This document shows positions 1 to 26,660 of a DNA stretch of 45,791 bases, one piece after another. Both the position numbers and the translations under genes were made by a program. This stretch comes from a virus: IMG/VR virus record IMGVR_UViG_3300029857_000010. One strand, written 5' to 3'. Every line of letters starts with the position of its first letter. Position 1 is the stretch's first letter. Below the pieces are notes generated by a model. The model saw only the letters and a list, made by a program, of their open reading frames with translations. It was not told the origin of the DNA and did not search any database.

Positions 1-1488
1 AGTCGAAGTGCTGGACAATGAGCTATCCACAGTAATATTAGTAATATCTGTTTTCTTAGCATAGGTATCAACAATGACATTACCTGCACCATCATGAAGT
101 GCTGCTGCTGCTGTTTCAGTTTTACCTAATTTACCATCTAAGGCTTCTTTGATAACCTTGTTCTGCACAGGGTTCAGACTGGAATCACTTAATTCAGCAT
201 CCACATCAATAGAAGTACCACCACCAGAACCCGGATTACCTCTTGGAATCGTAAAGTTCAAGATAGCGTTAGTAGAAGTACCACTATTGGTAACACTTGC
301 ATTAGTACCGGGTTCACCTGTATACACACTACCAATACGGATAGTAGCAGCATTACCAGCAATACCTTGTAAGCCTTGCTCACCTGTATCGCCTTTATCG
401 CCTTTTACACCTTGTATACCTTGTGCGCCAGGGTCACCTTTGTCACCTTTTGCGCCCTTAATGTTTACACTAGCAGGATTATCCAAGCCAGCCTTATTTG
501 TCCAACTCAACACACCAGAAGAAGATACACTAGGGGTGAATACATTGACATTCTCACTATATCGTTTAGCATTGTCCATGTAGGTTTTTGCATTGTCCTT
601 GTAAGTTCGTGCTTCGTTTGCACTACTTCTTGAAGCGTTTGCAAAGTTACTAGCAGTAGTAGCAGCAGACTGTGCCGCTTCCTTGCTGGCTTCTGCGTTG
701 TTTTCGCTAATTTTGGCATTGGCTTCGCTTGCCTTTGCGTTGGTTGCAGATGCCGTAGCGTCAGCCTTGGCGGTTAATGCCTCCTGCTTATAACCACTCG
801 TCAGCTCCGCATTTTCAGCAGCGCTTGCAGCAGATAAGCTCGCGTACTGTGCGCTGTTACCTGCTACGCCTGCTGATTCGAATGCACTATCTTCACTCTT
901 TGCCGCTGCAGCTGCACTTGCAGATGCAATCTGCGCTTGTGCTTGAGTCTGCGCATAAGTGCCTTGCACCAATGGCAAAACCTTTGCCGGGTCTTCCGAC
1001 AATTCAAGAGTTTTTCCGTCGTCGCTAATTCTAAAGCTCTTGCCGTTCTCCCACGGGATTACAGTATCAATATCAGAACTTTTGCTTACACCGATTTTCA
1101 AACTTCTGTCGGTAGTATCGGTAAGCTGTTGCGCAATCATCGTCAATTTGTCACCGATTGCCTCAACCTGGTTAAAAGGATATTGGTCTGGCAAATCCGT
1201 TTCCTGCGTTACCGGCACTTCCCTATAAATCGTCAGTTTCCAACCTGTCGGCAACGCCGGCGGCCGTTCACTCTCCGGCACTTCTGCGCCGACTGCGTAA
1301 CCTGGATAACGCACAACGCTTTTTTCAACGTCAACATAATAATCTTTAGTCAGCAGTTTTTCTTTGCCGTCTGCGTCTGTCAGCAAAACTTTAATGTCCG
1401 TTCGGTTTAAAATTTTAAACTGATACGCAAACTCTGTTGCATTTCCGTTGCCGCTATATGTGATTCTGTTCTCAACATGAGCAAGCAT
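1..1488 (-). CDS. tail fibre protein, N-terminal 496 codons; the gene continues across the window junction into 44991..45692
   Basis: Reverse frame is open from the ATG at complement(1486..1488), which has the SD AAAGGAGGGG 7 nt upstream, down to position 1 with no stop. It contains collagen-like Gly-X-Y triplets (GAKGDKGDPGAQGIQGVKGDKGDTGEQGLQGIAG, about nt 360-462) and Ala/Ser-rich repeats. Protein sequence is continuous with the ORF at the window end (…ITVDSSLSSTST…). Confidence 0.8.
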   Translation of the reverse strand, partial: MLAHVENRITYSGNGNATEFAYQFKILNRTDIKVLLTDADGKEKLLTKDYYVDVEKSVVRYPGYAVGAEVPESERPPALPTGWKLTIYREVPVTQETDLPDQYPFNQVEAIGDKLTMIAQQLTDTTDRSLKIGVSKSSDIDTVIPWENGKSFRISDDGKTLELSEDPAKVLPLVQGTYAQTQAQAQIASASAAAAAKSEDSAFESAGVAGNSAQYASLSAASAAENAELTSGYKQEALTAKADATASATNAKASEANAKISENNAEASKEAAQSAATTASNFANASRSSANEARTYKDNAKTYMDNAKRYSENVNVFTPSVSSSGVLSWTNKAGLDNPASVNIKGAKGDKGDPGAQGIQGVKGDKGDTGEQGLQGIAGNAATIRIGSVYTGEPGTNASVTNSGTSTNAILNFTIPRGNPGSGGGTSIDVDAELSDSSLNPVQNKVIKEALDGKLGKTETAAAALHDGAGNVIVDTYAKKTDITNITVDSSLSSTST

Positions 1489-1627
1489 AATAGTTCCCCT
1501 CCTTTTATTATTTTTGCCAAAAGAAAAGTGTAGATATATTTTTATATCTACACTTAATAAATTCACTTTAACTAATTATACATTCATTTTCAAAGGTTCG
1601 TATCTATGCTACTTTGTGAAATTTTTG

Positions 1628-4600
1628 TCAATCTTTTTTACGTTCGCTTTTTGGTCTGCGCTTGTAAATATCTTGCAGTTCAAAATCCATATCACCAGCA
1701 GCAATATCTATGCTGTTGAATATGATATTGAAGATGCCGGCAGGAACGCCAAGAAATGCACCGCCGACATATGCAGACTGCTCTATCAGTTCGCCAGTTC
1801 CTTCTTCGCCTCTGGCAACCTTGCCCAAACGGCGATAGACTGTCATGCCTTTATCAATCAGTCCTTGTGCCGCAGTCAGCCTGTAACCGTAGTTTTTCAT
1901 GCCTAGCAAGCATTGTATGCCGATATTTGCAAATTGGCCGTAAGGTCCACCCATAGACAACGGGTAGTTGATAAGTTCTTTTGACAATTTACGATAGCCG
2001 TCCTTATCTTTCTCAAAAGGAGCAGTCAAAGAAAGCTCTGCCATAGCCACGTTCAGCAAGCACACGCCGAGGAATTTGGCACCAGCAAAAGCAATCAGCC
2101 GTTCAGCCATTTCTTTTTTCTCACCGCTATTCCATAACCTTTTAACAATATGTGCTTCTCTGTCCCATTGGTTAAATTGTGTATTGAAAAATCCCTGGAA
2201 CATCGTAAACAATCTGAATAAGCCGCTATTTCGTTGCATACTTGATACATCATGAATACGACTACTGCCTAACGTGCGGCGAATAACAGTGTTCGCAAAG
2301 TCTAGTGCTTCCTGCTCTGTTTTGCCTTCGTTGATTTTCTTCATGTATGCTTCTGCAAATACCGGCTTTGCAGTCATCATATCAGTGTAGCCTAAAAGCA
2401 TTGCACCATATTTCAGCGTCCTTTTTTCAATCGGGTTAAGGTCAGAACGGTTCTGAATATCCCTTAACGTAATGTCTGGCACTCGCGAACGCTCACGCAT
2501 AAATGCGCTTTTGGCACAAATAGCGTCTACTTCTGCTCTGCCTTCACCTGTAAAACTGCGAAGTAAGGCTCTGAAAGCATCAGCATGAGTAAAGCCTTTT
2601 GTACTATTGCCGTAAAGAAATATGTTAGTAGTGTTCTGCATTATCGTTTTAAAATTAAACATAATAGCCGCATTTGTTGCAACATTACGCAAAGCGTCAG
2701 CAATCTTCGTAAACGTCGTTTCAGCCATGTATGCTGTCCTGCTACCATATGGGTTAGCGCAAGCCTGCAAAAACTCTCTCAAAAGTCTTACGTTTGTATC
2801 GCCTAAACGCTCAACCATGTTGCGGTAAATATCCTCATCGTTCAGTATCTTTCTGAAATCAAGCATTGTTTCGCGATAACAAATATCATGAATGTATTTT
2901 TTTACCGCCGTAACCTCACTGCCACGCGATAAGTCTACGGGATATTTGCCGCCGGTACGTGCTTTACTTGCGCTAGTATCCGTAGTCAAAGTCCGTTGCG
3001 GCGGTCTGCTGCCTTCTTCGGTACTGTCGATTCTGTCAAATTTTCCGGGCATACTGCCGGTGCGTGTATCACGTTCCAACGGGAAGTAACCACCTTCAAA
3101 TACCACGCTTTCACCGCTTGCAAGCTTCAGCACCAGCGGTGACGCTTCAATCTTCGGCGGCTCAAAGCCTTTTGTTCTGCGGTTGACTTCTGCCAGCATA
3201 GGCCAGAATTTACTTGCTGCATTGATACGCGCCTGGGCATAAGCAATATCTGCTTTAGTCAGATGCTTGCACAAAAACTCTATAAGGTTTTGTTTGGTTT
3301 GCAGCATTGCTTCTTCTTTGCCTATAAGCTCCGATTCTTCCACCCATATATCAGAATTCTTTACGCCTACCGGTTTTTGCGAACACAGCCTTGCGGCGTT
3401 ACTATCACTGCCAAGGTTGCACAGCATAGCAATCAAAGCATGCTTATCTGCGCTACCGCCAAGCTCTTCGTAGTAAATCCTTGTATCATGCGCAATGCCT
3501 GCTTTCTTGTCCGGCTCCCATTTCTGTAAAGCATCTATAAGCTCGTTCTGGTAACTTTCAAGCATCGTGCTTTCCATATCTGCACAATGGTTGATTTTGT
3601 TGTAAAACTCCCTAGTAAAATAACCTTCTTCCGTCCAATTATCCATCATCAAGAAAAAGTTATCAGCGTTACGCAGTGTAGCTATGATATTTTTAGGCCA
3701 GTCAATAATTCGCTTACGCAGGCTCTTTTTACTGTCGCTGCCAATCTCCGCCTCGTACTCTACCGGCAATTCTTGCAGGTGCGCTATCGTATCAGCCTTA
3801 ACCTGTTCAAAAGCTTCACCGGCGGCAATCTTATTCATCTTCGTATCTTGCTTTGCAATAGCACGAATGTTTTTCAGTGCGTCGATAACGTCCATGTAGT
3901 TTGCAAGGCTAAGCTGCGGCGCATTGGTCAAATCGTTATTCGGGTTCAAAACAAACTCCGGCATAGAAATAATTTCGTCGCCGTACTTTGCCTGCATCTC
4001 TGCAATGTACTCGCTAAGCGACTGCACCTCTCTACCGTTGGTGTTAAAGTCCTTGCGATGGTAGCCCATACGCTCCAGCAAAGCGCACATCTGGAAGAAG
4101 TGCTGCTCTGTTCCCCATACTTCTTTCTTGCTGTGCATCTGCTTTTTGACGTACTTTCTTGCGCTTTCAATCTGGTGTTTGGCCTTGACTGCTTCACGAT
4201 ACAAAGCATGGTTAATCATCTGCTGCTGCTTATACATAGCCGCTTCTTCCAAAAGGCCGGCTTTAGCAGCCTTATTTGCATTAGCCGCCGCTCTGCGTTC
4301 CGCCATAGCAAATCTTCTCGGCTTCATAACCTCGCCTGCGGGCAAAGTCTGAATATAGCGTTTAGCAAAATTATCTGCGTTCTGCTTACGCACTTTAGCA
4401 ATATTCTCACGCTCTTTTTGCTTAATATCCTTGTCGCTTATTTCATTAAGTGCTTCATCAATAAGCTGTTGTTCAAGTGCAACCACTTCGCCGCTTTCGT
4501 CATTGTAGAGTGCTTCCCTTGCCGCTTCTCTTGCCTGCTCACGCTCCTGCATGAAGTCGGGGAATCTGCGGTTTACGGCCTTGTCAATCTCTTGACGTAC

Positions 4601-7600
4601 CATAGCTCTTTCGCTAGGTGAAGTCAAAATATCCTGTGCCATAGCATCGCCGCTGTCATAGCCTAAGCTGTCGGCCACCCAGTCAAACAGTTCTCTCTGC
4701 TCGTTAGACAAGGCACGCTTTTTGCTCATCTCCACAAGGTCGACTTTATCCGGATTAGTTTCAAGCTCATGCTTCAAGGCTTTAAGCTCGTTAAGCTCCG
4801 TAAGTTGTTCACCCTCTACCAACGTTTCGGCAATCTCTTTCAAGCCTTCTTCGCTTTTGAGCTTTGCTCTGTCACCGCCGTTGCGAATGTAGTTTCTCGC
4901 CCAGTTATCCTGCACGTCGCTACCCTCATTCTCATTGACGGTATAACCTTCGACAATCTCTCTTGCCATTTCATAGCCGCTGGCATAGCCGTTTTCCTCT
5001 GCTATCTGGTCAAAGAGTTCTTTTTGCTCCTGCGATAATTGGTTGCGCTTACTTTCTTTTACCAAGTCGACACCTTCGGGGTCTGTTTCAAGTCTATGTT
5101 TCAAGGCTTGCAGTCTGTCCAGCTCATCTACAATATGCTTAAAGTCTGCCTTAATTTCAGCGTCGCCATAATCTAAACCGGTGCTACGCAAATCGTAGTA
5201 ATCCGCTATATCTTCGCCTCTTGCAATCTTTTCAGCAATTCTTCTGCGTCCTTTTTTACTGGTCAAGTCGCTTACGCTGCCGCCGTAGTCATGAACGTAT
5301 CTTGATACCCAGTTGACATTACGAATACTGTCACCTGCTTCATGGAATACAAGGCCTTCAATATCCGCTTGCTCTAAAGCTCGCTTAGTCCAATGACGTT
5401 TTCCGTCCTTGCCTATCTCACCAAAATCAACCAAGACTGCGCTTTGGTCCGGTATGCCTGCAAAGTCATTTGCATACTTGCCTTCTGTTCTGTTTGTTGC
5501 GGCGAAGTAGCCCCACTTGCCATTGATAAAAAACGCACGCTCACTCTTGACTGTATCTTGATATTCCGCAAGCTCACTTTCTATTCTGTTAGCAATCGGA
5601 TTTAAAATATCGTCAATAGCTCCGTTTGTATCTTTTAATAATTCGTTATAGTTTATACGTTCATTGCTATAAATATATTTTCTTGCAAGCCTACGCGGAT
5701 TAGCTTCTATTGTTTCCCATTCGTTGATTTTCTGCTTGAAGTTAGCATGAGCCATGCCGTGCTCATCAACAACAAATGTAGGATTGGTTACAGTTTTTTG
5801 TCGTGACTTGCTAAACATAGCAATCAGCATATCTTCGGCATTTGCAACACGCTCTTTAGAAAGTGTGCCGTATGTGTCGACTTCTGCTTGAAGATACTCA
5901 ACTATCGGATTGAGTATATCGTCAATGCTGGCGTTAGTATCGTTCAGCATATCATTATAGTTTGGCAGTACGCTTCCTAAAACGTGCCTGTACTTTCTTG
6001 CTATAATTGCAGGATTGGCAAGCTTTGTTTTGCGCCATGGAGTATCCGAATTATTAGCATGAGCCATGCCGTGCTCATCGTCTATAAAGTGCGAATCAAC
6101 AACCTTAACTTCCTTACCAAACTCATAACCTACCTGGTGTCTTGCACGATTGACAAGCTCCAATGATACTGCTTCTTCAATCTGCGGCCGTATTTCTTCG
6201 ATGAAAGCAGCCTTTTCAGCTCTGCGCTTTGCGCTGAAATCAGCCATTGCTCGTCTTGTCAGAATATCCACGGCCTTGTCTTTAGCCTTCAAGATTTTAT
6301 CCTGCAAGGCTTTTTTATTTTGGTCTGATAACTTGGATGTTATATTCTCTGGCAAGCCGCCGAACATGCCCTCCATGCGTGCCATAACTTCAATTTCTTC
6401 ACGGCACGCCAACATTCTGTCAAATACTTGCCGTACTTCCGGCGTTAATTCTGCCGCATTTTCGCTTCTTGCTATCTTGCTATAAATAGCTGATAACCAA
6501 TTAGCGAATCTCTGGAACACTCCGCGCAAGCCAACACTAGGCGCTTTGCCTTCCATGATGTAGGTTTCAAATGCTTCTGCCAGCTTTTCATGCCCGGCTC
6601 TCTTTGCTTCAACGTCACCGCTTGCCCATGTTTCAGCATCAATGCCTGCATACTCCATGAGTTTTTTTGCATCAGCATTTAGTCTTGTGTTGCTGGGGTC
6701 TGCCAATGCTTCGTTAATCATGGTTTCCACAAAGTAGTGTCCTGTTTCGTGGATAACTGTACTTGCATCTGCGCCCTTAAAAAGCGTGATAACATAAGTA
6801 CCATCATCCATTGGGGAAATCATGCCTTTATCTTTCAGTGTACCATTGACAATTTTTTGTTGCTTGTAATTATCTGCTTTTTGTGATACACTATTAGCAA
6901 AAGAGGACGTTTTGTTTGAGATACTGGGCTGAGCCTTGAATTGCTCGGAACCCGAGGGCTTGAACGCGTCCTCTATTTTTTTATACTCACTTTCGTTAAA
7001 AACATTATGATTATAATATGATAATGATTTATCATTATGTTCTCTTACTGTAACAACTACATAACGTTTTTCACCATTAACATTCAGTGCAGAATGAATA
7101 TAATAAAAATTCTCGTCTGAATGTTTTTCTTTTTGCGGCGCAGATTCTGTAACGAAATTACCATTCTCCATAATTTCACGTAAATAGCGCAATGCAAAAA
7201 GTTTTTCTTTTTTAGCGGAAGTGTGTTCCATTTTCTTTCTGCCACTTGTGCCAAATTTAATATTATTTTCTTGATACCCTTTATCTATTCTAATATCACC
7301 CAATACACCATTATGAACGCTCGTGCCTTGCAAGTTGTCCCTATACCATGCAAAAGCCTTTTTCTGCAAGCTCTTCAAATCTGAATAGTGTCCCATCTCA
7401 TTTCCGGTAATATTAGTAGTATAGAATTGCTCTTTTTTAAGCACTCCTCCCTTGCTAAACCAGCCATTCTTTTGTTTAGCTTTGCCGCCATCTTCAAAGC
7501 GCAGCTTATTCTTTTGCAGCCACGCAGCAGGATTTTCGGGGTCTGCAATAAGCGCGCGGCTCTCCAATACTAAACGCAAATTACCGGCATGAGATTTATT

Positions 7601-9064
7601 CATACCGGCTTTAGTAGCGCTGCCTACAATAGCGTCAAGTTCTGCATCAAGCTCCGTACTTGCTTGCCTGGTTAAGTTGTAGCCTTCTCGCAGTTCTTTG
7701 CGCGTCTTTGCACCACCGTCCGACAATTCGCCGTTACTGTCAAAATACATATTGTCTTTCGTAGCTTCAAACAATGCATTGTCCTTAGCCATTGCCGCCG
7801 TAAACTTGCCGCGGCTAATATCAATATCCTGCCCCAGCTCCGCCGCAGTTGCCACTTCTTCCGCTGTCACACCTAACTCGTCAAAAAGTTTATTGTTATT
7901 GCTAGTCTGCTTGTAGCCTTCCAAGTCCTGTGCAGATACTGTTACTGTATCGTCCTCAAAGTTAGGATTATTCGCTTCAATTTCAGCCGCCGCACGTTCC
8001 GGGTTAATGCCTGTTTCTTTGATTCGTTCAGCATCCGCTACTAACTTCGCCTTACGTTCTTCGTTAGCTTTTAATGCGACGTGCTCAACAACGCTGTCAA
8101 CTGCAACGCTTACGCCGCTAACACTACCGCCAAGAATAGCACCAATAAGGCCGCTATATCCTGCTTCCTTCAAGTTCTGCTGCCAGTTCTCGCCCCACTT
8201 CTCTGCAAGTTTGGCAGTGCTTGCGCCGGGGTTCTTTGCCCATAAGTCCGTAGCTTGCTCCGGGAATTCCTGCAATGCTTCGGTAACACCTTCTTCAAGG
8301 CCACGTTTGGTAACTTCCCATATCTTAGTTTTCAGTCCGCTACCGGCAGGCATCTTTTTAAGCAGTCTGCCAAGCGGCAGTTCTTCTAATACTGCCTGCG
8401 GGATTGCATTCATCAAGCCAGCCTCCGCTGCTCTGGTTGCGCTTACGCCCTCTTTGCGCAGTCGCAGGTATTGTTCGCCGCTGATGTTTGCACCATTGTA
8501 AAGCATACTGATAGCGTGTACAGTTTTTGCACCTGCACCGGCAGCACCTACACCTTTAGTCAGTGCAAGCTGTACTAAAAGCTGAATGCCGTTTTCAGCC
8601 AAATCATAACCAAGTTGCCCAGCCGCCGTATCAGCCTTAACTTCTTCGCGCTTCAAAATCTCATCGGTGACATAGCCTAAAGCCTTGCTGATGTTCTCTG
8701 ATTGGTCATACTCTTTAACAACATTCTTGTCACCCTTATGAGCTTCAATATTAGCGTCAACGGTCGCTTTAGCCGCACCGAATAAGCCACGCACCGAACC
8801 TTTAAGGCCGTTCATTACGGCAGTGCCTATGCCTGGTTTATCATCGTTGATAATGCTGCTAGTATCAATCGTCGGTGAGCTATTGCTCTGTACTGCCTGC
8901 GAAAACTTATTGTACTCATCGTCGCTCATTTTTTGCAGGTCATAATAGCCTAGAGTTTCAGCAGGTGACAAGCCGCTGTCAATATCAGCAATAAAGCCAT
9001 AATTAGCATATTCCTTTTTTGCTTTTAATCTGCGGTCGAATTCGTCTAAAGGTTCATTAGCCAT
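1628..9064 (-). CDS. giant 2478-aa virion/ejection protein (polyvalent-type) with an HExxH zincin-like metallopeptidase motif and internal tandem duplications; in the position of T7 gp16
   Basis: Single uninterrupted 7.4-kb ORF. HETGH motif at nt 6737-6751. Two pairs of internal repeats, about 5537-5773 vs 5849-6103 and 4616-4798 vs 4940-5122. Start codon abuts the stop of the upstream SLT gene. Confidence 0.75.
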   Translation of the reverse strand: MANEPLDEFDRRLKAKKEYANYGFIADIDSGLSPAETLGYYDLQKMSDDEYNKFSQAVQSNSSPTIDTSSIINDDKPGIGTAVMNGLKGSVRGLFGAAKATVDANIEAHKGDKNVVKEYDQSENISKALGYVTDEILKREEVKADTAAGQLGYDLAENGIQLLVQLALTKGVGAAGAGAKTVHAISMLYNGANISGEQYLRLRKEGVSATRAAEAGLMNAIPQAVLEELPLGRLLKKMPAGSGLKTKIWEVTKRGLEEGVTEALQEFPEQATDLWAKNPGASTAKLAEKWGENWQQNLKEAGYSGLIGAILGGSVSGVSVAVDSVVEHVALKANEERKAKLVADAERIKETGINPERAAAEIEANNPNFEDDTVTVSAQDLEGYKQTSNNNKLFDELGVTAEEVATAAELGQDIDISRGKFTAAMAKDNALFEATKDNMYFDSNGELSDGGAKTRKELREGYNLTRQASTELDAELDAIVGSATKAGMNKSHAGNLRLVLESRALIADPENPAAWLQKNKLRFEDGGKAKQKNGWFSKGGVLKKEQFYTTNITGNEMGHYSDLKSLQKKAFAWYRDNLQGTSVHNGVLGDIRIDKGYQENNIKFGTSGRKKMEHTSAKKEKLFALRYLREIMENGNFVTESAPQKEKHSDENFYYIHSALNVNGEKRYVVVTVREHNDKSLSYYNHNVFNESEYKKIEDAFKPSGSEQFKAQPSISNKTSSFANSVSQKADNYKQQKIVNGTLKDKGMISPMDDGTYVITLFKGADASTVIHETGHYFVETMINEALADPSNTRLNADAKKLMEYAGIDAETWASGDVEAKRAGHEKLAEAFETYIMEGKAPSVGLRGVFQRFANWLSAIYSKIARSENAAELTPEVRQVFDRMLACREEIEVMARMEGMFGGLPENITSKLSDQNKKALQDKILKAKDKAVDILTRRAMADFSAKRRAEKAAFIEEIRPQIEEAVSLELVNRARHQVGYEFGKEVKVVDSHFIDDEHGMAHANNSDTPWRKTKLANPAIIARKYRHVLGSVLPNYNDMLNDTNASIDDILNPIVEYLQAEVDTYGTLSKERVANAEDMLIAMFSKSRQKTVTNPTFVVDEHGMAHANFKQKINEWETIEANPRRLARKYIYSNERINYNELLKDTNGAIDDILNPIANRIESELAEYQDTVKSERAFFINGKWGYFAATNRTEGKYANDFAGIPDQSAVLVDFGEIGKDGKRHWTKRALEQADIEGLVFHEAGDSIRNVNWVSRYVHDYGGSVSDLTSKKGRRRIAEKIARGEDIADYYDLRSTGLDYGDAEIKADFKHIVDELDRLQALKHRLETDPEGVDLVKESKRNQLSQEQKELFDQIAEENGYASGYEMAREIVEGYTVNENEGSDVQDNWARNYIRNGGDRAKLKSEEGLKEIAETLVEGEQLTELNELKALKHELETNPDKVDLVEMSKKRALSNEQRELFDWVADSLGYDSGDAMAQDILTSPSERAMVRQEIDKAVNRRFPDFMQEREQAREAAREALYNDESGEVVALEQQLIDEALNEISDKDIKQKERENIAKVRKQNADNFAKRYIQTLPAGEVMKPRRFAMAERRAAANANKAAKAGLLEEAAMYKQQQMINHALYREAVKAKHQIESARKYVKKQMHSKKEVWGTEQHFFQMCALLERMGYHRKDFNTNGREVQSLSEYIAEMQAKYGDEIISMPEFVLNPNNDLTNAPQLSLANYMDVIDALKNIRAIAKQDTKMNKIAAGEAFEQVKADTIAHLQELPVEYEAEIGSDSKKSLRKRIIDWPKNIIATLRNADNFFLMMDNWTEEGYFTREFYNKINHCADMESTMLESYQNELIDALQKWEPDKKAGIAHDTRIYYEELGGSADKHALIAMLCNLGSDSNAARLCSQKPVGVKNSDIWVEESELIGKEEAMLQTKQNLIEFLCKHLTKADIAYAQARINAASKFWPMLAEVNRRTKGFEPPKIEASPLVLKLASGESVVFEGGYFPLERDTRTGSMPGKFDRIDSTEEGSRPPQRTLTTDTSASKARTGGKYPVDLSRGSEVTAVKKYIHDICYRETMLDFRKILNDEDIYRNMVERLGDTNVRLLREFLQACANPYGSRTAYMAETTFTKIADALRNVATNAAIMFNFKTIMQNTTNIFLYGNSTKGFTHADAFRALLRSFTGEGRAEVDAICAKSAFMRERSRVPDITLRDIQNRSDLNPIEKRTLKYGAMLLGYTDMMTAKPVFAEAYMKKINEGKTEQEALDFANTVIRRTLGSSRIHDVSSMQRNSGLFRLFTMFQGFFNTQFNQWDREAHIVKRLWNSGEKKEMAERLIAFAGAKFLGVCLLNVAMAELSLTAPFEKDKDGYRKLSKELINYPLSMGGPYGQFANIGIQCLLGMKNYGYRLTAAQGLIDKGMTVYRRLGKVARGEEGTGELIEQSAYVGGAFLGVPAGIFNIIFNSIDIAAGDMDFELQDIYKRRPKSERKKD

Positions 9065-11164
9065 TTAGTAATCTCCTTTCAGTAACTTTGCAAGATATGC
9101 GCCGTTTATTTTGCCCGATGTGCCATCCAGCCATTTAACATCGTACCAATCATCACCGGTTTTGTTTACGCTTGCGATACCACGTGCAATCAAATCTGCG
9201 TCACTTGCTTTTATATCTTCTGTACTGTCAAACCAGAATGAATGTTTTTCGGTAACATAGCTGCCGTAAACCTTAGTAGTTACGCAGTTTTGCAAGGCTT
9301 CCAACAACTCCGTTTCACCCGGATTCATGCCGTGATTTTTTACGCGATAAGCGCGTACCCATTGCCGCCCGTAGTTTTGGATTTTCTTCTTGTACAGTGC
9401 ATCAGCATTTTTACCTGCGACTTGTTGCACAAGGCCTTCCATATCAAAAGCAAATTCGCCTGTACCGCTATACCAATCTTTGTATATTTTTTCTAACTTC
9501 CCACGCTGCGCAGATGATGCACCTTTGTTAGCAGCGTATGCCAAGAATTGGTCAATGCTTGCAAACTTGCCTTCTTGCAGCATATCTTCCAGTACGCCTA
9601 TTGCATCATCATCAAGTTTTCCATTACTGCTTCCACCGCTACCGCCGCTTCCGCTTCTGCCTTGTGGTCCGTATATTGCCGTCACCGCATTACGATACGT
9701 TACGTACTTATCTGGGTCACTGCCTGCCTGGTTAGTAGCCCACGCCATAGCTTCACTGTAGCTTGTGCCGTTATTAAACATAGCAAATAGATTACTCTTT
9801 ATTCCTTCAAAAAGCTTGTTTTTCTTATAAGTTTCTATTCTGTCATGGTCTGCCTTGATAGTGCGGTACTGCTTCATAATGCGGTCTTGCTCATCCTGGC
9901 TCATGTTGTGGGTGCTATGCCCTGTACCCATTCTTGCCAATACGCTGTCTGCATATTCGTTAATGCTGGGTTCGTCGCCGTTGCCTTGCTTGCGATTCAT
10001 AGCTTCCGCGCTATATTTTAACGCGCCTTCGCCGCCGTACCATGCAATAGCCGCGCCACGTGCACCGTATTTATCATAGTATTGTTTTAACTTAAAACGT
10101 GCTACAATCTCTTGATTTTCCGGTGTCATTTCTGCACCTGCTGGCAAGCCTGCTTCTTGACTCCAGCTAGGCCAGTTATCCGGCATAATCTGATACTTGC
10201 CGCTTGCGCCTGTACGGCCATTCTTGGCGTTATAATTGCCGCCGCTTTCCTGCCCGCCTATTGCAGCAACAAGATTGTCAAATTCATTGCCACCCTCTGA
10301 AAATCCTTTCATGCCTTCAAGTTCTTTGCGCACTGCTTCTTCGTTGTCGCCATATTTAGCATACAAATCTTTAGCAGTATTTCTTTCAAAAGCGCTGCTT
10401 TCTTTATCGTATGCCACCTTCTCAAAAGCGGCGCGCTGATTAGCAGTCAGATAACTACCGTATTTATCCATGATGTTACGCATAGTGCCATAATCTTCGT
10501 TGGTGATACTTGCGCCGACGGCACTCGCTACCACCTGCCCGATGTTGGCTCTGCTCTTAGATTCGATAAACTCTGCGCCACGCTTGCCATATATAGCACT
10601 TGTCAGCAACTGTGTACGAATAATTTCATCTTGCAGCGCCTGCGGGTTGTTCCAGTTCTTCTGTACAAACTCGCAGGAGTTCTGAATATTATTGTCATAG
10701 CGCAAATCAGTGACTGCTTCTTTTTGCTTCTGCTCGTATTGGTCGACAGTCTGGAAGCCTTGCTGTGCGCTCTGATACATTAAATGGTCTAATGCAAGCT
10801 GGTTCTTTTGGCTGTGCAATTTGGTATTGCTTAATACATCCTGCCTTGCTTTATTTATCTGCTCTGTGTAGCTTGCGCCTGCACCGGCAGTGCCTTCTAA
10901 CTTTGTATTCATAAGGCCGCTTTCATCGTTGTACATGATGTTATAACGGCTCTTATTAAATATATCCATAGCATTAAGAATGGACTGTTTGTCCTCATCT
11001 TCCTGCTGTGCTTCTACTGCTACCGCCCATTTGTTGGCGGCGCCGGCAATAGCGGCAAGTCCTTTGCCGCCGCTGCCATAAGCGTTAAGGTCACTCGATA
11101 CCTTGACAGTCGCACCGCTGCCAGCACCTAAATTGACGCTGCCTTGATAACCTGCAATCTTCAT
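9065..11164 (-). CDS. internal virion protein with lytic transglycosylase (SLT) domain, 699 aa
   Basis: Motif GGQESGGNYNAKNGRTGASGKYQIMPDNW (E-S … GA.G..Q) is typical of the SLT catalytic region. Gly/Ser linker SGSGGSGGSS. Gene order matches T7 gp15/gp16. Confidence 0.7.
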   Translation of the reverse strand: MKIAGYQGSVNLGAGSGATVKVSSDLNAYGSGGKGLAAIAGAANKWAVAVEAQQEDEDKQSILNAMDIFNKSRYNIMYNDESGLMNTKLEGTAGAGASYTEQINKARQDVLSNTKLHSQKNQLALDHLMYQSAQQGFQTVDQYEQKQKEAVTDLRYDNNIQNSCEFVQKNWNNPQALQDEIIRTQLLTSAIYGKRGAEFIESKSRANIGQVVASAVGASITNEDYGTMRNIMDKYGSYLTANQRAAFEKVAYDKESSAFERNTAKDLYAKYGDNEEAVRKELEGMKGFSEGGNEFDNLVAAIGGQESGGNYNAKNGRTGASGKYQIMPDNWPSWSQEAGLPAGAEMTPENQEIVARFKLKQYYDKYGARGAAIAWYGGEGALKYSAEAMNRKQGNGDEPSINEYADSVLARMGTGHSTHNMSQDEQDRIMKQYRTIKADHDRIETYKKNKLFEGIKSNLFAMFNNGTSYSEAMAWATNQAGSDPDKYVTYRNAVTAIYGPQGRSGSGGSGGSSNGKLDDDAIGVLEDMLQEGKFASIDQFLAYAANKGASSAQRGKLEKIYKDWYSGTGEFAFDMEGLVQQVAGKNADALYKKKIQNYGRQWVRAYRVKNHGMNPGETELLEALQNCVTTKVYGSYVTEKHSFWFDSTEDIKASDADLIARGIASVNKTGDDWYDVKWLDGTSGKINGAYLAKLLKGDY

Positions 11165-11176: not shown

Positions 11177-11839
11177 TTACCAGTTCCATTTAGTAAAGCC
11201 TGTATTATCCATGAACGGGTTATTCTTCTTTGCCTGGTTGTAAAGATTGAAGCCGTTCATATTGCTAGCAGGAAGATTGAAATCACTGTTAGCATCGTAC
11301 CAATCGTCACTGCTTACCGTAGTTGTTCCCTTGCTGCCGCCAATCATACCTTTAGAGTAAGCGTTCGCCGCCGCACCTACAAGCGTACTAAACATCTGCA
11401 TTTTGCCGTTGGCTTTAGCGTTCTTCGCCGCCGCATTATATGCGCTTGCCTGGTTGCGATAATTAACCTCGTTTACATAAGTGCTCCACGCATCATTACG
11501 CTGATTTTGCAACAGATTCATACTGTCTTTTTTGTAAGCGTCCTCGCTGCTTGAAAGAATATCAGCAACACTGCCGCTGTCGGTTAGGCCGCTGCTGCCG
11601 GCCGCCGCCAGTGCCTGCCCTCTTGCAAGCCTCATTCTATCGTTGAGTTGGCTTTGCTTCTGCGCATACGCTTCTGCCTGCTGCTCACGTTGGCGGCTCA
11701 TAATAGCCGCGTTCTGCTGTGCAGCCTGCGCCTGCGCTTTATATGCCTGCTCCTGCTGTTTGGCCTGCTGATGTTGTCCGCTTAACTGCATAACAGTTTG
11801 CAGACCCATTAAGATTCCAAGTGTACCCATTACGCTCAC
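11177..11839 (-). CDS. Q/A-rich internal virion protein (positional T7 gp14-like), 220 aa
   Basis: ORF with low-complexity Gln/Ala-rich coiled-coil-like N-terminus. Call is by position between the gp12-like and gp15/16-like genes. Confidence 0.45.
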   Translation of the reverse strand: MSVMGTLGILMGLQTVMQLSGQHQQAKQQEQAYKAQAQAAQQNAAIMSRQREQQAEAYAQKQSQLNDRMRLARGQALAAAGSSGLTDSGSVADILSSSEDAYKKDSMNLLQNQRNDAWSTYVNEVNYRNQASAYNAAAKNAKANGKMQMFSTLVGAAANAYSKGMIGGSKGTTTVSSDDWYDANSDFNLPASNMNGFNLYNQAKKNNPFMDNTGFTKWNW

Positions 11840-12333
11840 TCCCCTCTATATGGAATATAAAACTGATAAAACTTTTTGCCGTCCCAACCTGTTTTAGGCT
11901 CTACCAAAAATACCGCTCCCAAGTGTCTTAAATAGTTAATGCTAGTGCGGTTCTTCTCGTAGACGATATTATGCAGCAGTCCATGCTTGCGTACCCATTC
12001 ATTCAGCACTCTTTTCGCTTCCTTGAAAAGCAGGCTCTTTGTGTAACCATTGTAAAGTTCGTTCGTGCCTACCATCCAGATTCCGCGCCCTGGCGCGCCC
12101 CATTCCATAGTGCCCTTGCCGAATATCGCAAGCAGTTTTCCGTCCTCACCACGGTACACCCTTGTTTCTTCGTCAAGCTTGATACTGCCAATAAGCACAA
12201 ATACCGGGTCACTGCTTGCTTCCAAATCTTCCTTATCATGCGGCCGTATATCCTGCATAAGTTCTTCAATCAACGGCACAACATTTTCTTTTGACTTATT
12301 ATCAAGTATTTCAACTGTCCACTTCTTAGCCAC
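11836..12333 (-). CDS. hypothetical virion protein (positional gp13-like), 165 aa
   Basis: ORF overlapping its neighbours by 4-8 nt, indicating translational coupling. Confidence 0.4.
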   Translation of the reverse strand: MAKKWTVEILDNKSKENVVPLIEELMQDIRPHDKEDLEASSDPVFVLIGSIKLDEETRVYRGEDGKLLAIFGKGTMEWGAPGRGIWMVGTNELYNGYTKSLLFKEAKRVLNEWVRKHGLLHNIVYEKNRTSINYLRHLGAVFLVEPKTGWDGKKFYQFYIPYRGE

Positions 12334-16173: not shown

Positions 16174-17175
16174 TTACACGACTGCCGCTTCGGTTTCGCT
16201 CTGGCAGTCAAGTTTCTTAATCTGAATACCTGCAAGGTACAGTTTAGGCGGTGCGCCCATAAAATCTTGACGGGTAACATGAACATTGTTTTTGTTGTTC
16301 AGATAGCACTCCAGCCAAGAGTATACGCCGTCAGATACATACGCAACCGGCGCTTTCGGGTCTTGCAGACGGTTCTTTGCGAAGATGAATTTATTCATCA
16401 GTTCACGTTGCGCACTGTCAGTCAAAGAGTTAAGCTTTTGGACATCAATGTTGCACACGCGCACAATAGAACGAACATTTTGTACCGCCAAGCCACACTT
16501 CCAAGAGTACAAGGTCTGCAATGCACGGAACGGCTTGTTATTCTCATCGTATACGTCGCTTTCGCCCAAGTCCTCAGTCTTCAAGCCTGCCTGGGTGCCT
16601 TTAGGATATACACCCATTACGCGGCGGTCGCCCCAGTCTACGAAGTAGATAGAAGCATTAGTGTTAGTGCCAGGAGTACCCGCGGAAATCACCTGGTGGC
16701 CCGGAGTGCCTTTGCCGCCGTCGGTCAAAGTATTGTAGCGAACCGCAATACCATTGAAAGTGTCCGGGTCTTCATCCAAGTTGCCGTACAAGAATTGACG
16801 TGCGACGTATTGGCCCATGCCTTCTACGTGTGCATCGTCCTCTGCCATACGGAAAGCCTGCGGATTCGGTTTGCCGGAAAGCAATTCAACGTCCACGCAG
16901 GAACGGTCCTCCAAGTGCATACATACATCAATGCGCTGCTTTACAGTGCCTTTAGTCGGAGAAGTACCGCGGTTAATACGACGGATAGACGGAGAAGGCA
17001 GGCTGGCACGAATAGTAGTTTTAGTACCAATCGGCAAATCGCCTTCCATCCACCGAATATCTTCCATAATAGGATTGGATTCGTTAAGCACTTCCATAAC
17101 GCGGTCAATAGCGCCTTGCGGAGTTAAATACTTTCGTAAGTCACTCATAGTTTGGGAGTAACCAATAGTAGCCAT
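16174..17175 (-). CDS. major capsid protein (HK97-fold type), 333 aa
   Basis: Position after the scaffold gene and size are typical for an MCP. Preferred start is ATG (MATIGYSQ…) with GGAAGGA upstream. The ORF track's longer start at 17202 uses TTG. Confidence 0.65.
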   Translation of the reverse strand: MATIGYSQTMSDLRKYLTPQGAIDRVMEVLNESNPIMEDIRWMEGDLPIGTKTTIRASLPSPSIRRINRGTSPTKGTVKQRIDVCMHLEDRSCVDVELLSGKPNPQAFRMAEDDAHVEGMGQYVARQFLYGNLDEDPDTFNGIAVRYNTLTDGGKGTPGHQVISAGTPGTNTNASIYFVDWGDRRVMGVYPKGTQAGLKTEDLGESDVYDENNKPFRALQTLYSWKCGLAVQNVRSIVRVCNIDVQKLNSLTDSAQRELMNKFIFAKNRLQDPKAPVAYVSDGVYSWLECYLNNKNNVHVTRQDFMGAPPKLYLAGIQIKKLDCQSETEAAVV

Positions 17176-17217
17176 AGTTTCATCATCCTTCCTGTTTTTC
17201 AATTAAAAGTTAATAAA

Positions 17218-17895: not shown

Positions 17896-18284
17896 TAGTT
17901 ATTCCCCTTGTTGTTATCCACATATTCCACTGCCAGCTCTTGCAGCTTTAGTTGGAATTCTGCATACTCCATTTCAGCCTGCTGCTTTAGCTCTATGCCT
18001 TGCAGTCCAAGTGCTAAAATGCTTTTAATAATGCCTAAGCCTACGTCGCGGCGGCCTTCGTTATAGAAAGTCTTGCTGTTGCCGGTAAAGCACATAGAGT
18101 TTACTTTGGTCACATCAAGCATACGCATCAAGAACCAGCGTCCGCTTTCACTCCCCAGCAGGTCAAGTAGGGCCTCTTTGTCCCTTCTTGCCTGCTCTCT
18201 TACCATGTACTCTGTCAGCAGTGCTTGCCTTCTATCCTCGCCGGTATTGGATTTATATTTAAACTGCTCGCTCATTATTCCCAA
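17895..18284 (-). CDS. hypothetical protein, 129 aa
   Basis: ORF between the portal and scaffold genes, overlapping the portal stop. Confidence 0.4.
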   Translation of the reverse strand: MGIMSEQFKYKSNTGEDRRQALLTEYMVREQARRDKEALLDLLGSESGRWFLMRMLDVTKVNSMCFTGNSKTFYNEGRRDVGLGIIKSILALGLQGIELKQQAEMEYAEFQLKLQELAVEYVDNNKGNN

Positions 18285-20047
18285 CCTCCCGGCACGCCTA
18301 GCCAGCTTGTAATAGCTGGGTTGGAATCATTCGCCGCCGCAGTAAGATTTTTGGCCGCCTCTGCCGCAGGAGCCGCAGCCTGCGCCATTGCCAAGCCTTC
18401 CTGCATTTCCTGCTGCCGTTGCATTTCCTGCTGCTCTTGTTTGAGCATTTCTTGTACTTCTTCATCACTACGCAATGCCACTGCAGGCACGCCAAGCATT
18501 TCAAAGTATTTTGTAATAGCACCCAACGGGTTAATCTTCTTTGTAACTTCTGGCCATACTTGCGCCATTTGTCCGGTCTGTGCTATCGCCTGTTCGATAT
18601 TCACAAGTCCGCTCATCTTCTGCGCCTGCGCCAGCGGTGAAATATAGTCCACTTCCACATCTTCCTCGCTCAAAAGGTCTTGCAGTTCTTCCGGTACCGG
18701 AGGGAAACCGCCACTTCTGTCGATGATGTTATATACACGTTGAAGAATCAGTGTTAAGAATTCATCCTGCAATCGCTCAACCACGGGGCCTAGCTGTTGC
18801 AGTTTTTCCTGCGTTCTCTCCATAACCTCCCTAGCAGTCATGCGGCTATTATCAAGGTTATCTAACATCAAGAACAAATCAGCACTGTATGCTCTCTTTA
18901 TAGCATCCTCAACGCGAATAATTTCTTCCTGCGCGTCCTTCAAGTCAAGGTCAACCGCGAACAAAGGCTTAACCATATCTTGCGTCTGGTCATCTACGGC
19001 TGTTAGACCGCCAGGCATCAAGTTAATACCGCCGTTATTCATAAGGCTTGGGCTGCCTTGCATCGGCGGCTTTATCTTTAACTCTATTGCTGTGAGATAA
19101 TCTTTTTTCAGCAGTTGCAGCATTTTACTGTCGCCTTCTGCAAACCACGCAGGACCTCTTGCGTATGCTTCATTGCCGCTGACAAGATAACGCGCTACCG
19201 GTACTGCTTCTTCTTCAAAGCCGCCAACATACAAGTATTCGTCGCTCTCTGATTTTTCCAACCAGTACACGCTTCTATACGGCATGTTCAGTCTGTCCAT
19301 GTAGCCAGGCAGTTTATCGCTGTTAGGCTCTACCATCCAGCAGACTTTATACTTCTTAGTAAGATTGGTCTGATTGTCTAACAGTCCTTTCAGATTGTCG
19401 GGCAAAGCGTCTACGCCGAAGCAGTCTGCTAGCTGCTGCAAAGTCATATCGTACTTTCTTGCAAAAGTAGTTACCTTGCCGAAGCCGTCTGCTTCAAGTG
19501 CATAAGTACCGATTGTCATTGTCTGGAACCGCACGCCGTTTTCTGCGTCGTAGAATATAGCCATCGGGCACTGCCCAAAAGGCAACTCCAGATATACAGT
19601 ATGGATGCTATTATAGAAGTTGCTCTTTGCAAGCACACTTGATACAATCTCTTGTCTTGTGTCAAGCACCTTCATAGCCTCAACATTCGTGTTCAGCTCC
19701 GGTCTTCTATATGCAAATCTGAACCACTGACGGCTCGGCGGTGTAAGTCCGCTCATAACGCCAGCGGCAAATACCTGCGCCGCTCTCCACGCTACGCCAT
19801 GCACAATCTTCAAGTCACGTCTGCGCGCGGGATTGGTCTTGTCTGCCGTGTTGTCAAACTCTCCGACAAACGGAAGCTGATAATCTCTTATCTCTTTCCA
19901 TCTGTCCTCCCAATCTCGCCTGTCCTCGTACATGCTTTTGAGCTTACGCACCAAACGCTGGCGGTCCGGCAAGTTCTTTTTCAGCGGCACCCCGTCACTA
20001 GGAAGTGTTCCCTGTGGCTTGCTCGCCGCTATCGTTTGAAAGTTCAT
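18275..20047 (-). CDS. portal / head-to-tail connector protein (T7 gp8-like), 590 aa
   Basis: The segment RMTAREVMERTQEKLQQLGPVVERLQDEFLTLILQRVYNI resembles T7 gp8 RVTAEEIRYVASELEDTLGGVYSILSQELQLPLVRVLLKQL. The Q/A-rich C-terminal tail is also gp8-like. Lies immediately downstream of the terminase gene. Confidence 0.7.
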   Translation of the reverse strand: MNFQTIAASKPQGTLPSDGVPLKKNLPDRQRLVRKLKSMYEDRRDWEDRWKEIRDYQLPFVGEFDNTADKTNPARRRDLKIVHGVAWRAAQVFAAGVMSGLTPPSRQWFRFAYRRPELNTNVEAMKVLDTRQEIVSSVLAKSNFYNSIHTVYLELPFGQCPMAIFYDAENGVRFQTMTIGTYALEADGFGKVTTFARKYDMTLQQLADCFGVDALPDNLKGLLDNQTNLTKKYKVCWMVEPNSDKLPGYMDRLNMPYRSVYWLEKSESDEYLYVGGFEEEAVPVARYLVSGNEAYARGPAWFAEGDSKMLQLLKKDYLTAIELKIKPPMQGSPSLMNNGGINLMPGGLTAVDDQTQDMVKPLFAVDLDLKDAQEEIIRVEDAIKRAYSADLFLMLDNLDNSRMTAREVMERTQEKLQQLGPVVERLQDEFLTLILQRVYNIIDRSGGFPPVPEELQDLLSEEDVEVDYISPLAQAQKMSGLVNIEQAIAQTGQMAQVWPEVTKKINPLGAITKYFEMLGVPAVALRSDEEVQEMLKQEQQEMQRQQEMQEGLAMAQAAAPAAEAAKNLTAAANDSNPAITSWLGVPGGWE

Positions 20048-20262: not shown

Positions 20263-21618
20263 TTATACCGCCTCCATAATCGAATACTCCGTGTTGCACA
20301 TTAGCTTTTTAGGCTTTCTATCATCAAGCCCTAACTGTCTTAACGGAACGTTCCTTGCAAATGTTAATACTAGGCCGTCTGCAAGGTCTGGTGAACGTCC
20401 TAGCTTTTCTTTTATCTCTTCTTTAGGCGTTAACATTAAACGCCCATTCTTAGAATACTTATAGTGAATGACTGCAAGTTCTTCTCTTAATCCCGGTTCC
20501 TCCGGCAAAGCACCGCCAGCCTCTATCCACTCTTTTAGCTTGAAGTACATCTCCGCTCTGATATTCTCGTATCGCTTATTCTCAATCGCTGCGCCTTGAA
20601 ACGGTATCTCTCTTAGCGCCGTGTACCCCATCTGCCTCAATCTGTCGACTACGCCAGCACCCATGTTGCCAACGTCTATAAAGGTCATATCTGCCTTATT
20701 TTCATCCATTGCCAAAGCAATATAATCTGCCGTCTGCATCGTATTCAACTTCTTATATACTCTCGGCCGTGAATATACCATTAGCCCCTTACGCTGCCAT
20801 ATACATGTTCTGTCATCGCCGAAGCGTGCTATATCTGCACCCTGGATAAGCGGCATATCATAGGGAATGTCCTTTTCCGTCAACTCTCTATTGAAAGCCC
20901 TGTCTAATTCTTCCAGACTGAAAAGCTCGTTGATTGCCGATACGCTAAAGTCACACAAATACTCTTGTCTGAATTCTACCTCCGGCATATCCTCTTTCAG
21001 TTCTTCTATGCTCTTTGCGTCTATAATGCCGCTATCGTACACGTTCGACAAATACGCAAAGTAACGCTTATTCGTCTTGGCCTTCTTGTACATCTCATAG
21101 AAGTTGTTCTGCCCCTTAGGTGTACCGATGAAATAGCAATAACCTTTTCTGTCGCCATTCTCTATCGCAGGTCTGATAATCTGCGTCCACATCTCCGGCT
21201 TCATATCCGAATACTCGTCAAGGATTACGCCGTCCCAATATGTACCGCGCAATGCGTCGGGATTATTCGCACCAACGATATATATTCTCGCTCCCTGCGC
21301 TCCAGGTACTTTACTGGGGAATTCAACATACTTTTTAGTTTCATTCACCTTGATGCCCTCTATGACGCTTGTGTAATACTTCAATGGGCCCCACGCGATA
21401 ATTTCCATCTGTGCGCTGAACGGACCTACTAAAGCATACTGCGGACTGATTAAGTCGCTCTGCAAAGCATCCCTTATAAGGTGATTCACCATTCCGATGG
21501 TCTTACCAAAGCGGCGGTGTGCTACGATTACTGCAAAGCGGTGTCTGCTTAATTCCTTATGCAGTACCTTCGCCCATGCAGGTCGTGGAGTATATGGTAT
21601 TTGTATTATGTTTTCCAT
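20263..21618 (-). CDS. terL: terminase large subunit, 451 aa
   Basis: ATPase motifs (…AHRRFGKT…, …GVILDEYSDM…) and a C-terminal nuclease-like region (FIDVGNMGAGVVDRL). True start is ATG at complement(21616..21618) with SD AGGGGG. The 64-aa N-terminal extension in the ORF track reads through noncoding sequence. Confidence 0.75.
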   Translation of the reverse strand: MENIIQIPYTPRPAWAKVLHKELSRHRFAVIVAHRRFGKTIGMVNHLIRDALQSDLISPQYALVGPFSAQMEIIAWGPLKYYTSVIEGIKVNETKKYVEFPSKVPGAQGARIYIVGANNPDALRGTYWDGVILDEYSDMKPEMWTQIIRPAIENGDRKGYCYFIGTPKGQNNFYEMYKKAKTNKRYFAYLSNVYDSGIIDAKSIEELKEDMPEVEFRQEYLCDFSVSAINELFSLEELDRAFNRELTEKDIPYDMPLIQGADIARFGDDRTCIWQRKGLMVYSRPRVYKKLNTMQTADYIALAMDENKADMTFIDVGNMGAGVVDRLRQMGYTALREIPFQGAAIENKRYENIRAEMYFKLKEWIEAGGALPEEPGLREELAVIHYKYSKNGRLMLTPKEEIKEKLGRSPDLADGLVLTFARNVPLRQLGLDDRKPKKLMCNTEYSIMEAV

Positions 21619-21996
21619 GTTTACCCCCTTGAAAAAATCGTTTTGGTAATTTTTGGTATTTACCTCCCCCGGCGGCTGCGAAATTTTTGGGCCCCACCCC
21701 CACTCAATGTCAGCGGGAAAGGCAAGAACCAAAATCAATTTTTGCGAAAACCCAGGGAAATCACCAACACCAGCGCTGCCAAACAACCAATCAGAACCCA
21801 CGCCAAACAAAAATAAAAACGTGGTAGGCCTGCCGCATGAGCCACGCAGGAACGGCCGCCAACATCTGCCAGGCGAACGCCTGCCGCTAACATCATCAGC
21901 CAGGCCGTCAACATCTGGAACCGCCAGCTAATCAGCAGCAGCAGGATAATATTTTACGTCCGATAATAAGGATTATGTTAAAAGTTCTATCTATGT

Positions 21997-22350
21997 TTAT
22001 GTTTTGGTAGCATCTTCTGAACAATCGTTTACAACTATCGCATCATCTGCCGCGCCCCAATGATACACGGCCGGCCCCTTGTTGGCGTGCGTCTGCTTGT
22101 CAAACGCGCCTATACTGTCAGCATACATCTTAGACGCTGCTAATCTATCCTTGTTGCTGGCCTTGTTATCAGTCATTATCTTGAGCCAGTAGGCTTGCAG
22201 GTCCTGCACAGCCAGGACGGCTACAGCCGCGCCCTGCTGTTTGAGCAGCGCCGCACAATCCTCTAACGTCTGCGGCGTTGTTGCTATTGCCGGTGGTCTG
22301 CCTCTTGTCGGTGTATTTGTATTAGCTAATAAACTTTTAATCTTAAACAT
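21997..22350 (-). CDS. putative terminase small subunit, 117 aa
   Basis: Small ORF immediately upstream of TerL on the same strand. The N-terminal TRGRPP motif suggests DNA binding. The weak SD makes the start uncertain (the track's longer start is at 22437). Confidence 0.4.
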   Translation of the reverse strand: MFKIKSLLANTNTPTRGRPPAIATTPQTLEDCAALLKQQGAAVAVLAVQDLQAYWLKIMTDNKASNKDRLAASKMYADSIGAFDKQTHANKGPAVYHWGAADDAIVVNDCSEDATKT

Positions 22351-22637: not shown

Positions 22638-22680
22638 GAAGAACGGCCGCCGCTGAACATCTGCCAGCGTGCGGCCGTTG
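22638..22680 (-). terminator. stem-loop downstream of the HTH gene, a putative terminator
   Basis: Inverted repeat AACGGCCGC…GCGGCCGTT followed by T-rich sequence on the minus strand. Confidence 0.4.
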
Positions 22681-22699
22681 CTACTCTTATAATGTTGTT

Positions 22700-26654: not shown

Positions 26655-26660
26655 AACACA

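Follow-up and report, generated by a model that had tools for sequence, protein, structure and literature searches.

In a 45,791-nt stretch of viral DNA (IMG/VR record IMGVR_UViG_3300029857_000010; hereafter the window), a giant gene encodes a 2478-aa protein in which, judging from protein and DNA comparisons, aa ~530-752 is a cassette slot whose content is exchanged between near-identical phages. This population-level slot is new in this analysis and constitutes its most useful result. It is enclosed by a conserved chassis, the overall architecture comprising an N-terminal module (aa 1-529), a domain with an HExGH motif (aa 748-900), and a C-terminal module (aa ~1481-2478), and the linker between the HExGH domain and the C-terminal module has been enlarged by two apparently old tandem duplications. 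The protein is probably the largest internal-virion (ejection) protein of a temperate BPP-1-like gut podophage, provided with cargo and corresponding to Bbp10, AF gp16, and PhiXacm4-11 gp35. Little is understood about the ejection proteins of short-tailed phages, and the Bbp10-type family is very large and barely studied.

The giant gene and its genomic context

The 7.4-kb reading frame named in the original prediction was borne out, with 2478 codons on the minus strand at 1628-9064 and a stop codon at 1628-1630. Its ATG (9062-9064) immediately adjoins the TAA (9065-9067) of the upstream gene, which encodes an SLT transglycosylase domain, and an AGGAG ribosome-binding site (9073-9077, minus strand) lies 8 nt 5' of the ATG. 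The gene and its parts are as follows:

1628..9064, minus strand: giant gene (2478 aa), Bbp10-type giant protein in the T7 gp16 (IVP-D) position, assigned by synteny and by homology to Bbp10 and AF gp16
7478..9064, minus strand: conserved N-terminal module of the family chassis (aa 1-529), with profile matches to Bbp10 and AF gp16; 43 distant representatives match
6809..7477, minus strand: variable slot for putative cargo cassettes (aa ~530-752), here LPD3; flanks alike and slot dissimilar in DNA
7031-7381, minus strand: Pfam match to LPD3 (aa 562-678; PF18798)
6365..6823, minus strand: conserved HExGH domain, putative metallopeptidase (aa 748-900), by motif and profile
6737-6751, minus strand: HETGH (aa 772-776), motif in the HExGH domain
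6551-6592, minus strand: second motif within the HExGH domain, H825-E826...E833.Y835..E838-GKAP
5849..6115, minus strand: repeat A, copy 1 (aa 984-1072), by self-comparison
5537..5803, minus strand: repeat A, copy 2 (aa 1088-1176), by self-comparison
4952..5335, minus strand: repeat B, copy 1 (aa 1244-1371), an extra copy missing from the family core, by self-comparison and family profile
4625..4924, minus strand: repeat B, copy 2 (aa 1381-1480), equivalent to family-core profile positions ~243-300 and continuing into the core
1631..4624, minus strand: conserved C-terminal module (aa 1481-2478), PHROG 9880, by PHROGs and family profile

Hydropathy analysis places a Gly-rich hydrophobic segment in the N-terminal module (aa 304-326; window 8087-8155) and two hydrophobic segments of helix length in the C-terminal module (aa 2322-2350 at 2015-2101 and aa 2431-2455 at 1700-1774).

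The T7 gp16 position that had been claimed for the gene agrees with its surroundings, as PHROGs and Pfam place the upstream genes in T7 order, and the giant gene follows the gp14-like and SLT genes and precedes the tail fibre. The neighbouring features, of which the first eight carry PHROGs or Pfam labels, are:

20263-21810: terminase
18275-20047: portal
Between portal and major capsid protein in the listed order: protease/scaffold
16174-17202: major capsid protein
After the capsid and before the gp13-like gene in the listed order: tail tubular A and B
11836-12333: gp13-like gene, a weak match
11177..11839, minus strand: T7 gp14-family internal virion protein of 220 aa (PF24072, E 1.5e-15)
9065..11164, minus strand: 699-aa protein with an SLT transglycosylase domain (aa 297-384), in the gp15 position
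1526..1555, minus strand: terminator-like hairpin followed by a T run, between the giant and tail-fibre genes, from a consensus scan only

Downstream of the hairpin, the tail-fibre-like gene contains collagen-type Gly-X-Y repeats and extends past the start of the window. The phage is temperate, encoding an integrase, RecE, and RecT. Its relatives reside on contigs of 45-47 kb from gut-type metagenomes and carry the Phage_Bbp19 domain. The sole genome-bin assignment is to a Bacilli MAG; if this assignment is correct, a T7-style outer-membrane model would be an awkward fit.

Relationship to Bbp10 and comparison with the core proteins of T7

A megablast comparison with the deposited phage collection returned no match and no close relative. 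At 23-26% identity, aa ~750-2450 align with the giant gene of phage genomes of ~39-48 kb, whose hosts include Pseudomonas (AF), Xanthomonas (the CP2 group), Caulobacter, Vibrio, and cyanobacteria, and identity to bbp10 of BPP-1 reaches 36% over the HExGH region. A profile of the HExGH domain and C-terminus, built from 70 diverse members (1259 states), matches Bbp10 at aa 781-2043 (1378 bits) and AF gp16 at aa 989-2213 (1025 bits), while the profile of the N-terminal module matches aa 144-601 of Bbp10 (E 9e-93) and aa 385-662 of AF gp16 (E 3e-25). Since both profiles match Bbp10 and AF gp16, the giant protein is identified as a full-length homologue of each. In Bordetella phage BPP-1 and Pseudomonas phage AF, the gene also holds the same place as here, after the tail tubular, gp14-like, and SLT genes and before the tail fibre. 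The tblastn match to Xanthomonas phage CP2 covers only part of the protein, and the counterpart status of PhiXacm4-11 gp35 is taken from a 2026 preprint, in which this CP2-type protein of 2300 aa is regarded as a gp16 analogue by synteny and likewise showed no similarity to PDB entries. Bbp10 is listed as an IVP-D homologue in Table 2 of Hardies et al. 2016 (PMC4819975). No experimental evidence placing any member of the Bbp10-type family in virions, or showing its ejection, was found in the literature consulted.

The giant protein is ~23-36% identical to its Bbp10-type relatives and differs from them in slot content, with AF gp16 carrying an LPD23-like domain and a second HExxH domain in the slot. 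It also contains ~470 additional residues, contributed by two copies of repeat A, an inserted stretch, and the duplicate of repeat B. The positional equivalent in T7 is gp16 (internal virion protein D), which is likewise the product of the largest of the core-protein genes, although the giant protein is nearly twice as long and the transglycosylase domain, which in T7 belongs to gp16, is here carried by the preceding 699-aa protein. In comparisons with T7 gp16 and gp15, hhalign gave probabilities below 1% and hmmsearch gave no significant match, a weak test in which a family profile was set against a single T7 sequence.

A cassette slot exchanged between near-identical phages

A metagenome protein search returned more than 120 relatives of the giant protein. 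Mapped onto the query, the close ones are 90-96% identical over aa 1-538 and 733-2478, and the segment between these regions is replaced. The same pattern holds at the nucleotide level, where three variant loci show flanks 91.5-95.4% identical to the window around a slot devoid of nucleotide similarity, setting the boundaries at aa ~526-529 and ~743-753. In the window, the slot contains LPD3 (PF18798) at aa 562-678, with a score that exceeds the curated Pfam cut-off (E 9.5e-17). Across 121 relatives, at least six slot states were distinguished, namely LPD3, an empty slot, and four or more further inserts:

LPD3: 53 of 121 proteins
None (empty slot): 37 of 121 proteins
Unknown domain of ~170 aa ('type 2'): 19-20 of 121 proteins
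Another unknown domain ('type 3'): 8 of 121 proteins
Internally deleted LPD3: 1 of 121 proteins
Insert of ~390 aa with a sub-threshold ART-PolyVal match (E 0.22): 1 of 121 proteins
LPD23 and a second HExxH domain: 1 of 121 proteins

Every cassette starts directly after a 'GW.Q/S' motif and ends at an aromatic-[KQL]-Q motif; ~10 residues separate the latter from the HExGH domain, and 'KG..x[PQ]..DG.Y' follows shortly after it. An empty slot consists of both junction motifs in tandem ('RGWTQKVWGRAKGWQQN'). The motifs may mark recombination joints, cleavage sites, or both. The cassette is predicted to be alpha/beta, with low confidence, in the second AF2 model (aa 540-905), and a comparison of the LPD3 segment with the PDB yielded only arginine-kinase matches, which arose by chance. 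As near-identical gut phages differ mainly in slot content, they would serve as a natural experiment in the swapping of injected effector domains.

The giant protein also appears to be built as a polyvalent protein, so that the label given to it in the original prediction was broadly right: besides LPD3, domains of the HExGH type co-occur with ART-PolyVal, LPD22/23, MuF_C, Zeta toxin, and RelA_SpoT. Among the 14 longest of the best 150 HExGH proteins, ART-PolyVal is present in nine, LPD22 in seven, and LPD23 and LPD3 in three each; DUF3293, DUF3990, ddrB-ParB, Zeta_toxin, MuF_C, RelA_SpoT, and GNAT also occur in this set. The features shared with polyvalent proteins (Iyer et al. 2017; PMC5512222) include giant size, multiple domains, a virion-gene context, LPD3, an HExxH hub domain, and mosaic orthologues. 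In contrast to polyvalent proteins, the HExGH domain here has no match to the MPTase-PolyVal Pfam model, and the candidate cargo is not part of a free string of domains but is embedded within the conserved chassis of an ejection protein.

The HExGH domain and the question of peptidase activity

The HETGH motif is located exactly where it had been claimed, at nt 6737-6751 (aa 772-776); in a protein of such composition, the chance expectation for one HExxH is 0.06. H772, E773, H776, E826, E833, and Y861 are invariant in all 143 diverse representatives, and H825 is present in 141 of them. At the level of sequence, conservation of this kind is characteristic of a catalytic metal centre. Searched as a profile, aa 748-900 match 10,143 representatives of clusters defined at 50% identity when E <= 1e-3 is required, and 7,993 at the stricter cut-off of E <= 1e-10. 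The best 150 proteins with this domain are nearly all 1500-4800 aa long, and the domain begins at offsets of ~100 to 3000.

The first predicted model of the HExGH domain is all-helical, without beta strands; HExxH lies on a helix at residues 20-41, and E826 and E833, the downstream Glu candidates for a third metal ligand, lie on another at residues 71-91. In the longer AF2 model (aa 540-905, pLDDT 56), a two-strand beta-hairpin is predicted just before the HExxH helix, at low confidence, with pLDDT mostly <50 in this stretch and ~53 at the second strand. The zincin assignment of the original prediction was sustained in one part, since HExxH is conserved and situated on a predicted helix, and found no support in the other, since neither a zincin fold nor a peptidase family was matched. 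A fold search with the HExGH model recovered no solved zincin and no peptidase fold, and searches of the domain against Pfam and NCBIfam, together with a profile search of the PDB, found no peptidase family or solved peptidase. For aa 700-960, Pfam reported no family at E <= 1, MPTase-PolyVal included, the motif alone being present. A profile of 20 diverse HExGH domains retrieved only designed helical proteins and penicillin acylase from the PDB sequences (E > 0.01), BFVD returned family members only, and neither a phmmer search of the whole giant protein against PDB sequences nor an NCBIfam scan of it gave a match. Two outcomes had been named beforehand as grounds for rejecting the assignment, namely an HExxH outside a zincin fold or a plain all-alpha protein of tape-measure type, and the answer is mixed: these searches lent no support to a zincin fold, but a plain all-alpha protein does not fit the cassette, given its low-confidence alpha/beta prediction.

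A comparable arrangement is found in gp50, the virion RNA polymerase (vRNAP) of coliphage N4. The HExGH family and the N4 gp50 C1 family are colinear over 124 columns (hhalign E 0.0018, probability 15%), a borderline likeness that is suggestive only. The overall logic appears to be shared, with a membrane-type region at the N-terminus, cargo in a central position, an HExxH domain (C1, ~250 aa), and a helical C2 of ~1100 aa; unlike N4 gp50, the giant protein has no RNA polymerase. Pfam gave no hit to a T7-like RNA polymerase module, and the best blastp match to gp50 (E 0.01) falls on the C-terminal domain rather than the polymerase. No signal was detected by hhalign or hmmsearch between the C-terminal module and the C2/C-terminal region of N4 gp50, a search with which yielded 9 relatives; C2 has been described as lacking known homologues (PMC13434306; PMC4819975).

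Peptidase activity of the HExGH domain, suggested by its motif, has roughly an even chance of being real. It has been proposed that a zincin-like peptidase (MPTase) serves as a processing hub that cuts the polyvalent polyprotein after delivery (PMC5512222). The main alternative, which we consider possible but the less probable course, is that the domain is not a protease and instead provides a metal site for structure or regulation, or a module for encapsidation or allosteric control, with the protein acting uncleaved as beads on a string. The all-helical model without a solved zincin match and the failure to find a peptidase family are both consistent with it. Further points in its favour come from N4, whose vRNAP is packaged uncleaved and depends on its HExxH region for encapsidation (PMC5512222), and whose C-terminal domain regulates the polymerase allosterically, HExxH also being found in non-peptidase enzymes (PMC13434306). 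Because the N4 vRNAP is the best-studied analogue, its uncleaved packaging counts against taking processing as established. The slot variants supply precise constructs with which release of cargo by the HExGH domain can be tested.

Proposed mode of action

Internal virion proteins, according to Hardies et al., host lysozyme domains as well as domains destined for the cytoplasm, of which the N4 vRNAP represents the extreme case (PMC4819975). On the favoured reading of the giant protein as an ejection protein with cargo, it would reside in the capsid core and leave the particle before the DNA, accompanied by the gp14-like protein and the protein with the SLT domain; its N- and C-terminal modules may help to build or cross a channel through the envelope. 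The cargo domain would thereby reach the cytoplasm, the HExGH domain may release it there by cleavage, and the cargo could act on a target in the host or in a rival element, in an anti-defence or host-takeover role. Exchange of the slot by recombination between near-identical phages would be expected for an arms-race effector. We infer these roles, from packaging and ejection to channel formation, cargo delivery, HExGH-mediated release, and anti-defence, from the architecture and its parallels. If this mechanism holds true, the chassis could be adapted to carry proteins of choice into bacteria along with phage DNA.

A bolder version of the ejection-protein reading, which we regard as rather unlikely, would treat the slot as a plug-in effector bay with built-in release, in which the adjacent putative HExGH peptidase cleaves at the slot junctions. 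The family, with its more than 10,000 clusters, would in that case represent a general self-processing chassis through which podophages inject interchangeable anti-defence effectors via the ejectosome.

The enlarged linker and alternative roles of the protein

Both pairs of internal repeats reported earlier are real. Repeat A (aa 984-1072 versus 1088-1176) has 40 of 86 residues identical (z = 28 against shuffles), and the core of repeat B (aa 1314-1371 versus 1423-1480) has 33 of 58 (z = 21.5 against shuffles). The length of ~60 aa previously given for the second pair was too short: with one gap allowed, repeat B extends over aa 1244-1371 and 1381-1480, corresponding to a unit of ~100-128 aa. 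Because DNA identity between the copies reaches only 57% for A and 61% for B, the repeats are interpreted as old tandem duplications, contrary to the recent origin that had been suggested. Two inserts are recognized relative to the family core, at aa ~983-1329 (both copies of repeat A and a further stretch) and aa 1332-1448; the latter is the extra copy of repeat B, the other copy lying in the core at profile positions 243-300. Among 120 relatives, 78 have two copies of repeat A and 42 have one, and some close relatives (93% identical), P0042 and P0046 among them, lack exactly one unit. This variation in copy number, extending to close relatives without one unit, implies that the stretch linking the HExGH domain to the C-terminal module tolerates changes in length.

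Such tolerance of length would also suit a purely structural helical protein resembling a tape measure or scaffold, in which HExxH is an accident of the lineage and the repeats serve as length padding. The helical model of the HExGH domain and the description of IVP-C/D proteins as extensively helical (PMC4819975) point in the same direction. However, this explanation is very unlikely in view of the invariance of HExxH in 143 of 143 representatives of a family that exceeds 10,000 clusters, the effector-type domains found in the slot (LPD3, LPD23, and the sub-threshold ART-PolyVal match at E 0.22), and the predicted alpha/beta character of the cassette; a tape-measure protein as such was dropped, as the gene is part of a module typical of podoviruses and its conserved residues appear to be catalytic. 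Least probable of all is a lysin or tail-associated enzyme, a reading that draws on the phage-record names of the relatives ('lysin', 'lysis protein', and 'crystallin beta/gamma motif-containing protein', other family members being annotated as 'hypothetical') and was also dropped, because Pfam, PHROGs, and NCBIfam reveal no muralytic domain in the giant protein, the SLT domain belongs to the separate neighbouring gene upstream, and the label goes back to a motif-level annotation of Bbp10.

The repeats had further been described as visible in DNA, which applies to a small part of them. The 22-mer quoted earlier is found exactly at 5746 and again at 6058, as part of an identical stretch of 26 nt, and one additional stretch of 61 nt is 77% identical; elsewhere, the repeats are invisible at the nucleotide level and are recognized from the protein.

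Slot junctions and the type 3 cassette

Recurrent motifs border every cassette in the exchangeable slot of the 2478-aa giant protein, in the window (6809-7477) and at the junctions in the metagenomic relatives P0049, P0051, P0053, P0102 and P0116: GW.Q/S at the start and aromatic-[KQL]-Q at the end; in an empty slot the two motifs adjoin (RGWTQKVWGRAKGWQQN). These junction motifs may act as cleavage sites, as recombination joints, or as both. The type 3 cassette, found in the slot of relatives P0053, P0054 and P0058, spans about 150 aa and has no match in Pfam; its motifs YHTG, ITVYSS and FINADEG appear to resemble the H-Y-D pattern of polyvalent-protein ART domains.

A stand-alone chromosomal relative

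A 184-aa stand-alone ORF (P0122), located at 10001-10555 of locus L011 and at 10001-10555 of locus L012, matches aa 660-843 of the giant protein with 58% identity, a span comprising the end of LPD3 and the first half of the HExGH domain. Its setting is a chromosome of about 2 Mb with 38.7% GC, where it is neighboured by ISL3, IS3 and IS605 transposases and a RelB gene, with priA-def-fmt-rsmB-rlmN nearby. This ORF appears to be what is left of a related phage's gene within a Firmicute-like genome.

Genes flanking the giant ORF

The giant ORF is flanked by two genes:

9065-11164, minus strand: gp15-position gene encoding a 699-aa protein with an SLT transglycosylase domain at aa 297-384
1 to about 1500, minus strand: tail-fibre-like gene 3' of the giant ORF, incomplete at the window start

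In T7 the transglycosylase resides on gp16, whereas in the window phage SLT is carried by the gp15-position gene and the gp16-position protein lacks it; the same arrangement is seen in BPP-1, where bbp11 carries SLT, and in Pseudomonas phage AF, where gp15 does. The gene on the 3' side, with an N-terminal region containing ITYSGNGNATEFAYQF, an Ala/Ser-rich stretch and Gly-X-Y repeats of collagen type (GAKGDKGDPGAQGIQGVKGDKGDTGEQGLQGIAGN), looks like a tail fibre.

Lifestyle, host and abundance

The window phage is temperate, as indicated by the presence of the following genes:

37934-38953, plus strand: integrase
33031-33975, minus strand: RecE-like exonuclease
31480-32322, minus strand: RecT-like annealing protein
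30228-31067, minus strand: replisome organiser

The sole match among GTDB species genomes (L010, contig CAAGQJ010000059.1, 47.7 kb, 95% identity) is a phage-sized contig placed by binning in 'Bacilli bacterium HGM10836', which makes a Bacilli host no more than possible. A host of Gram-positive type would be an odd setting for a gp14-family outer-membrane-type protein. The lineage is frequent in public metagenomes, given that a single 96%-identical protein cluster (P0002) represents 1833 member sequences; the sample names XIAO16 and WILS21, judged as names alone, suggest studies of gut metagenomes.

A search of the window for tRNA genes gave none. At about 22000-28000, in contrast to the rest of the window, the skews of GC and of AT both switch sign and GC content climbs to 52%, a block that may reflect opposite-strand transcription or a different origin.
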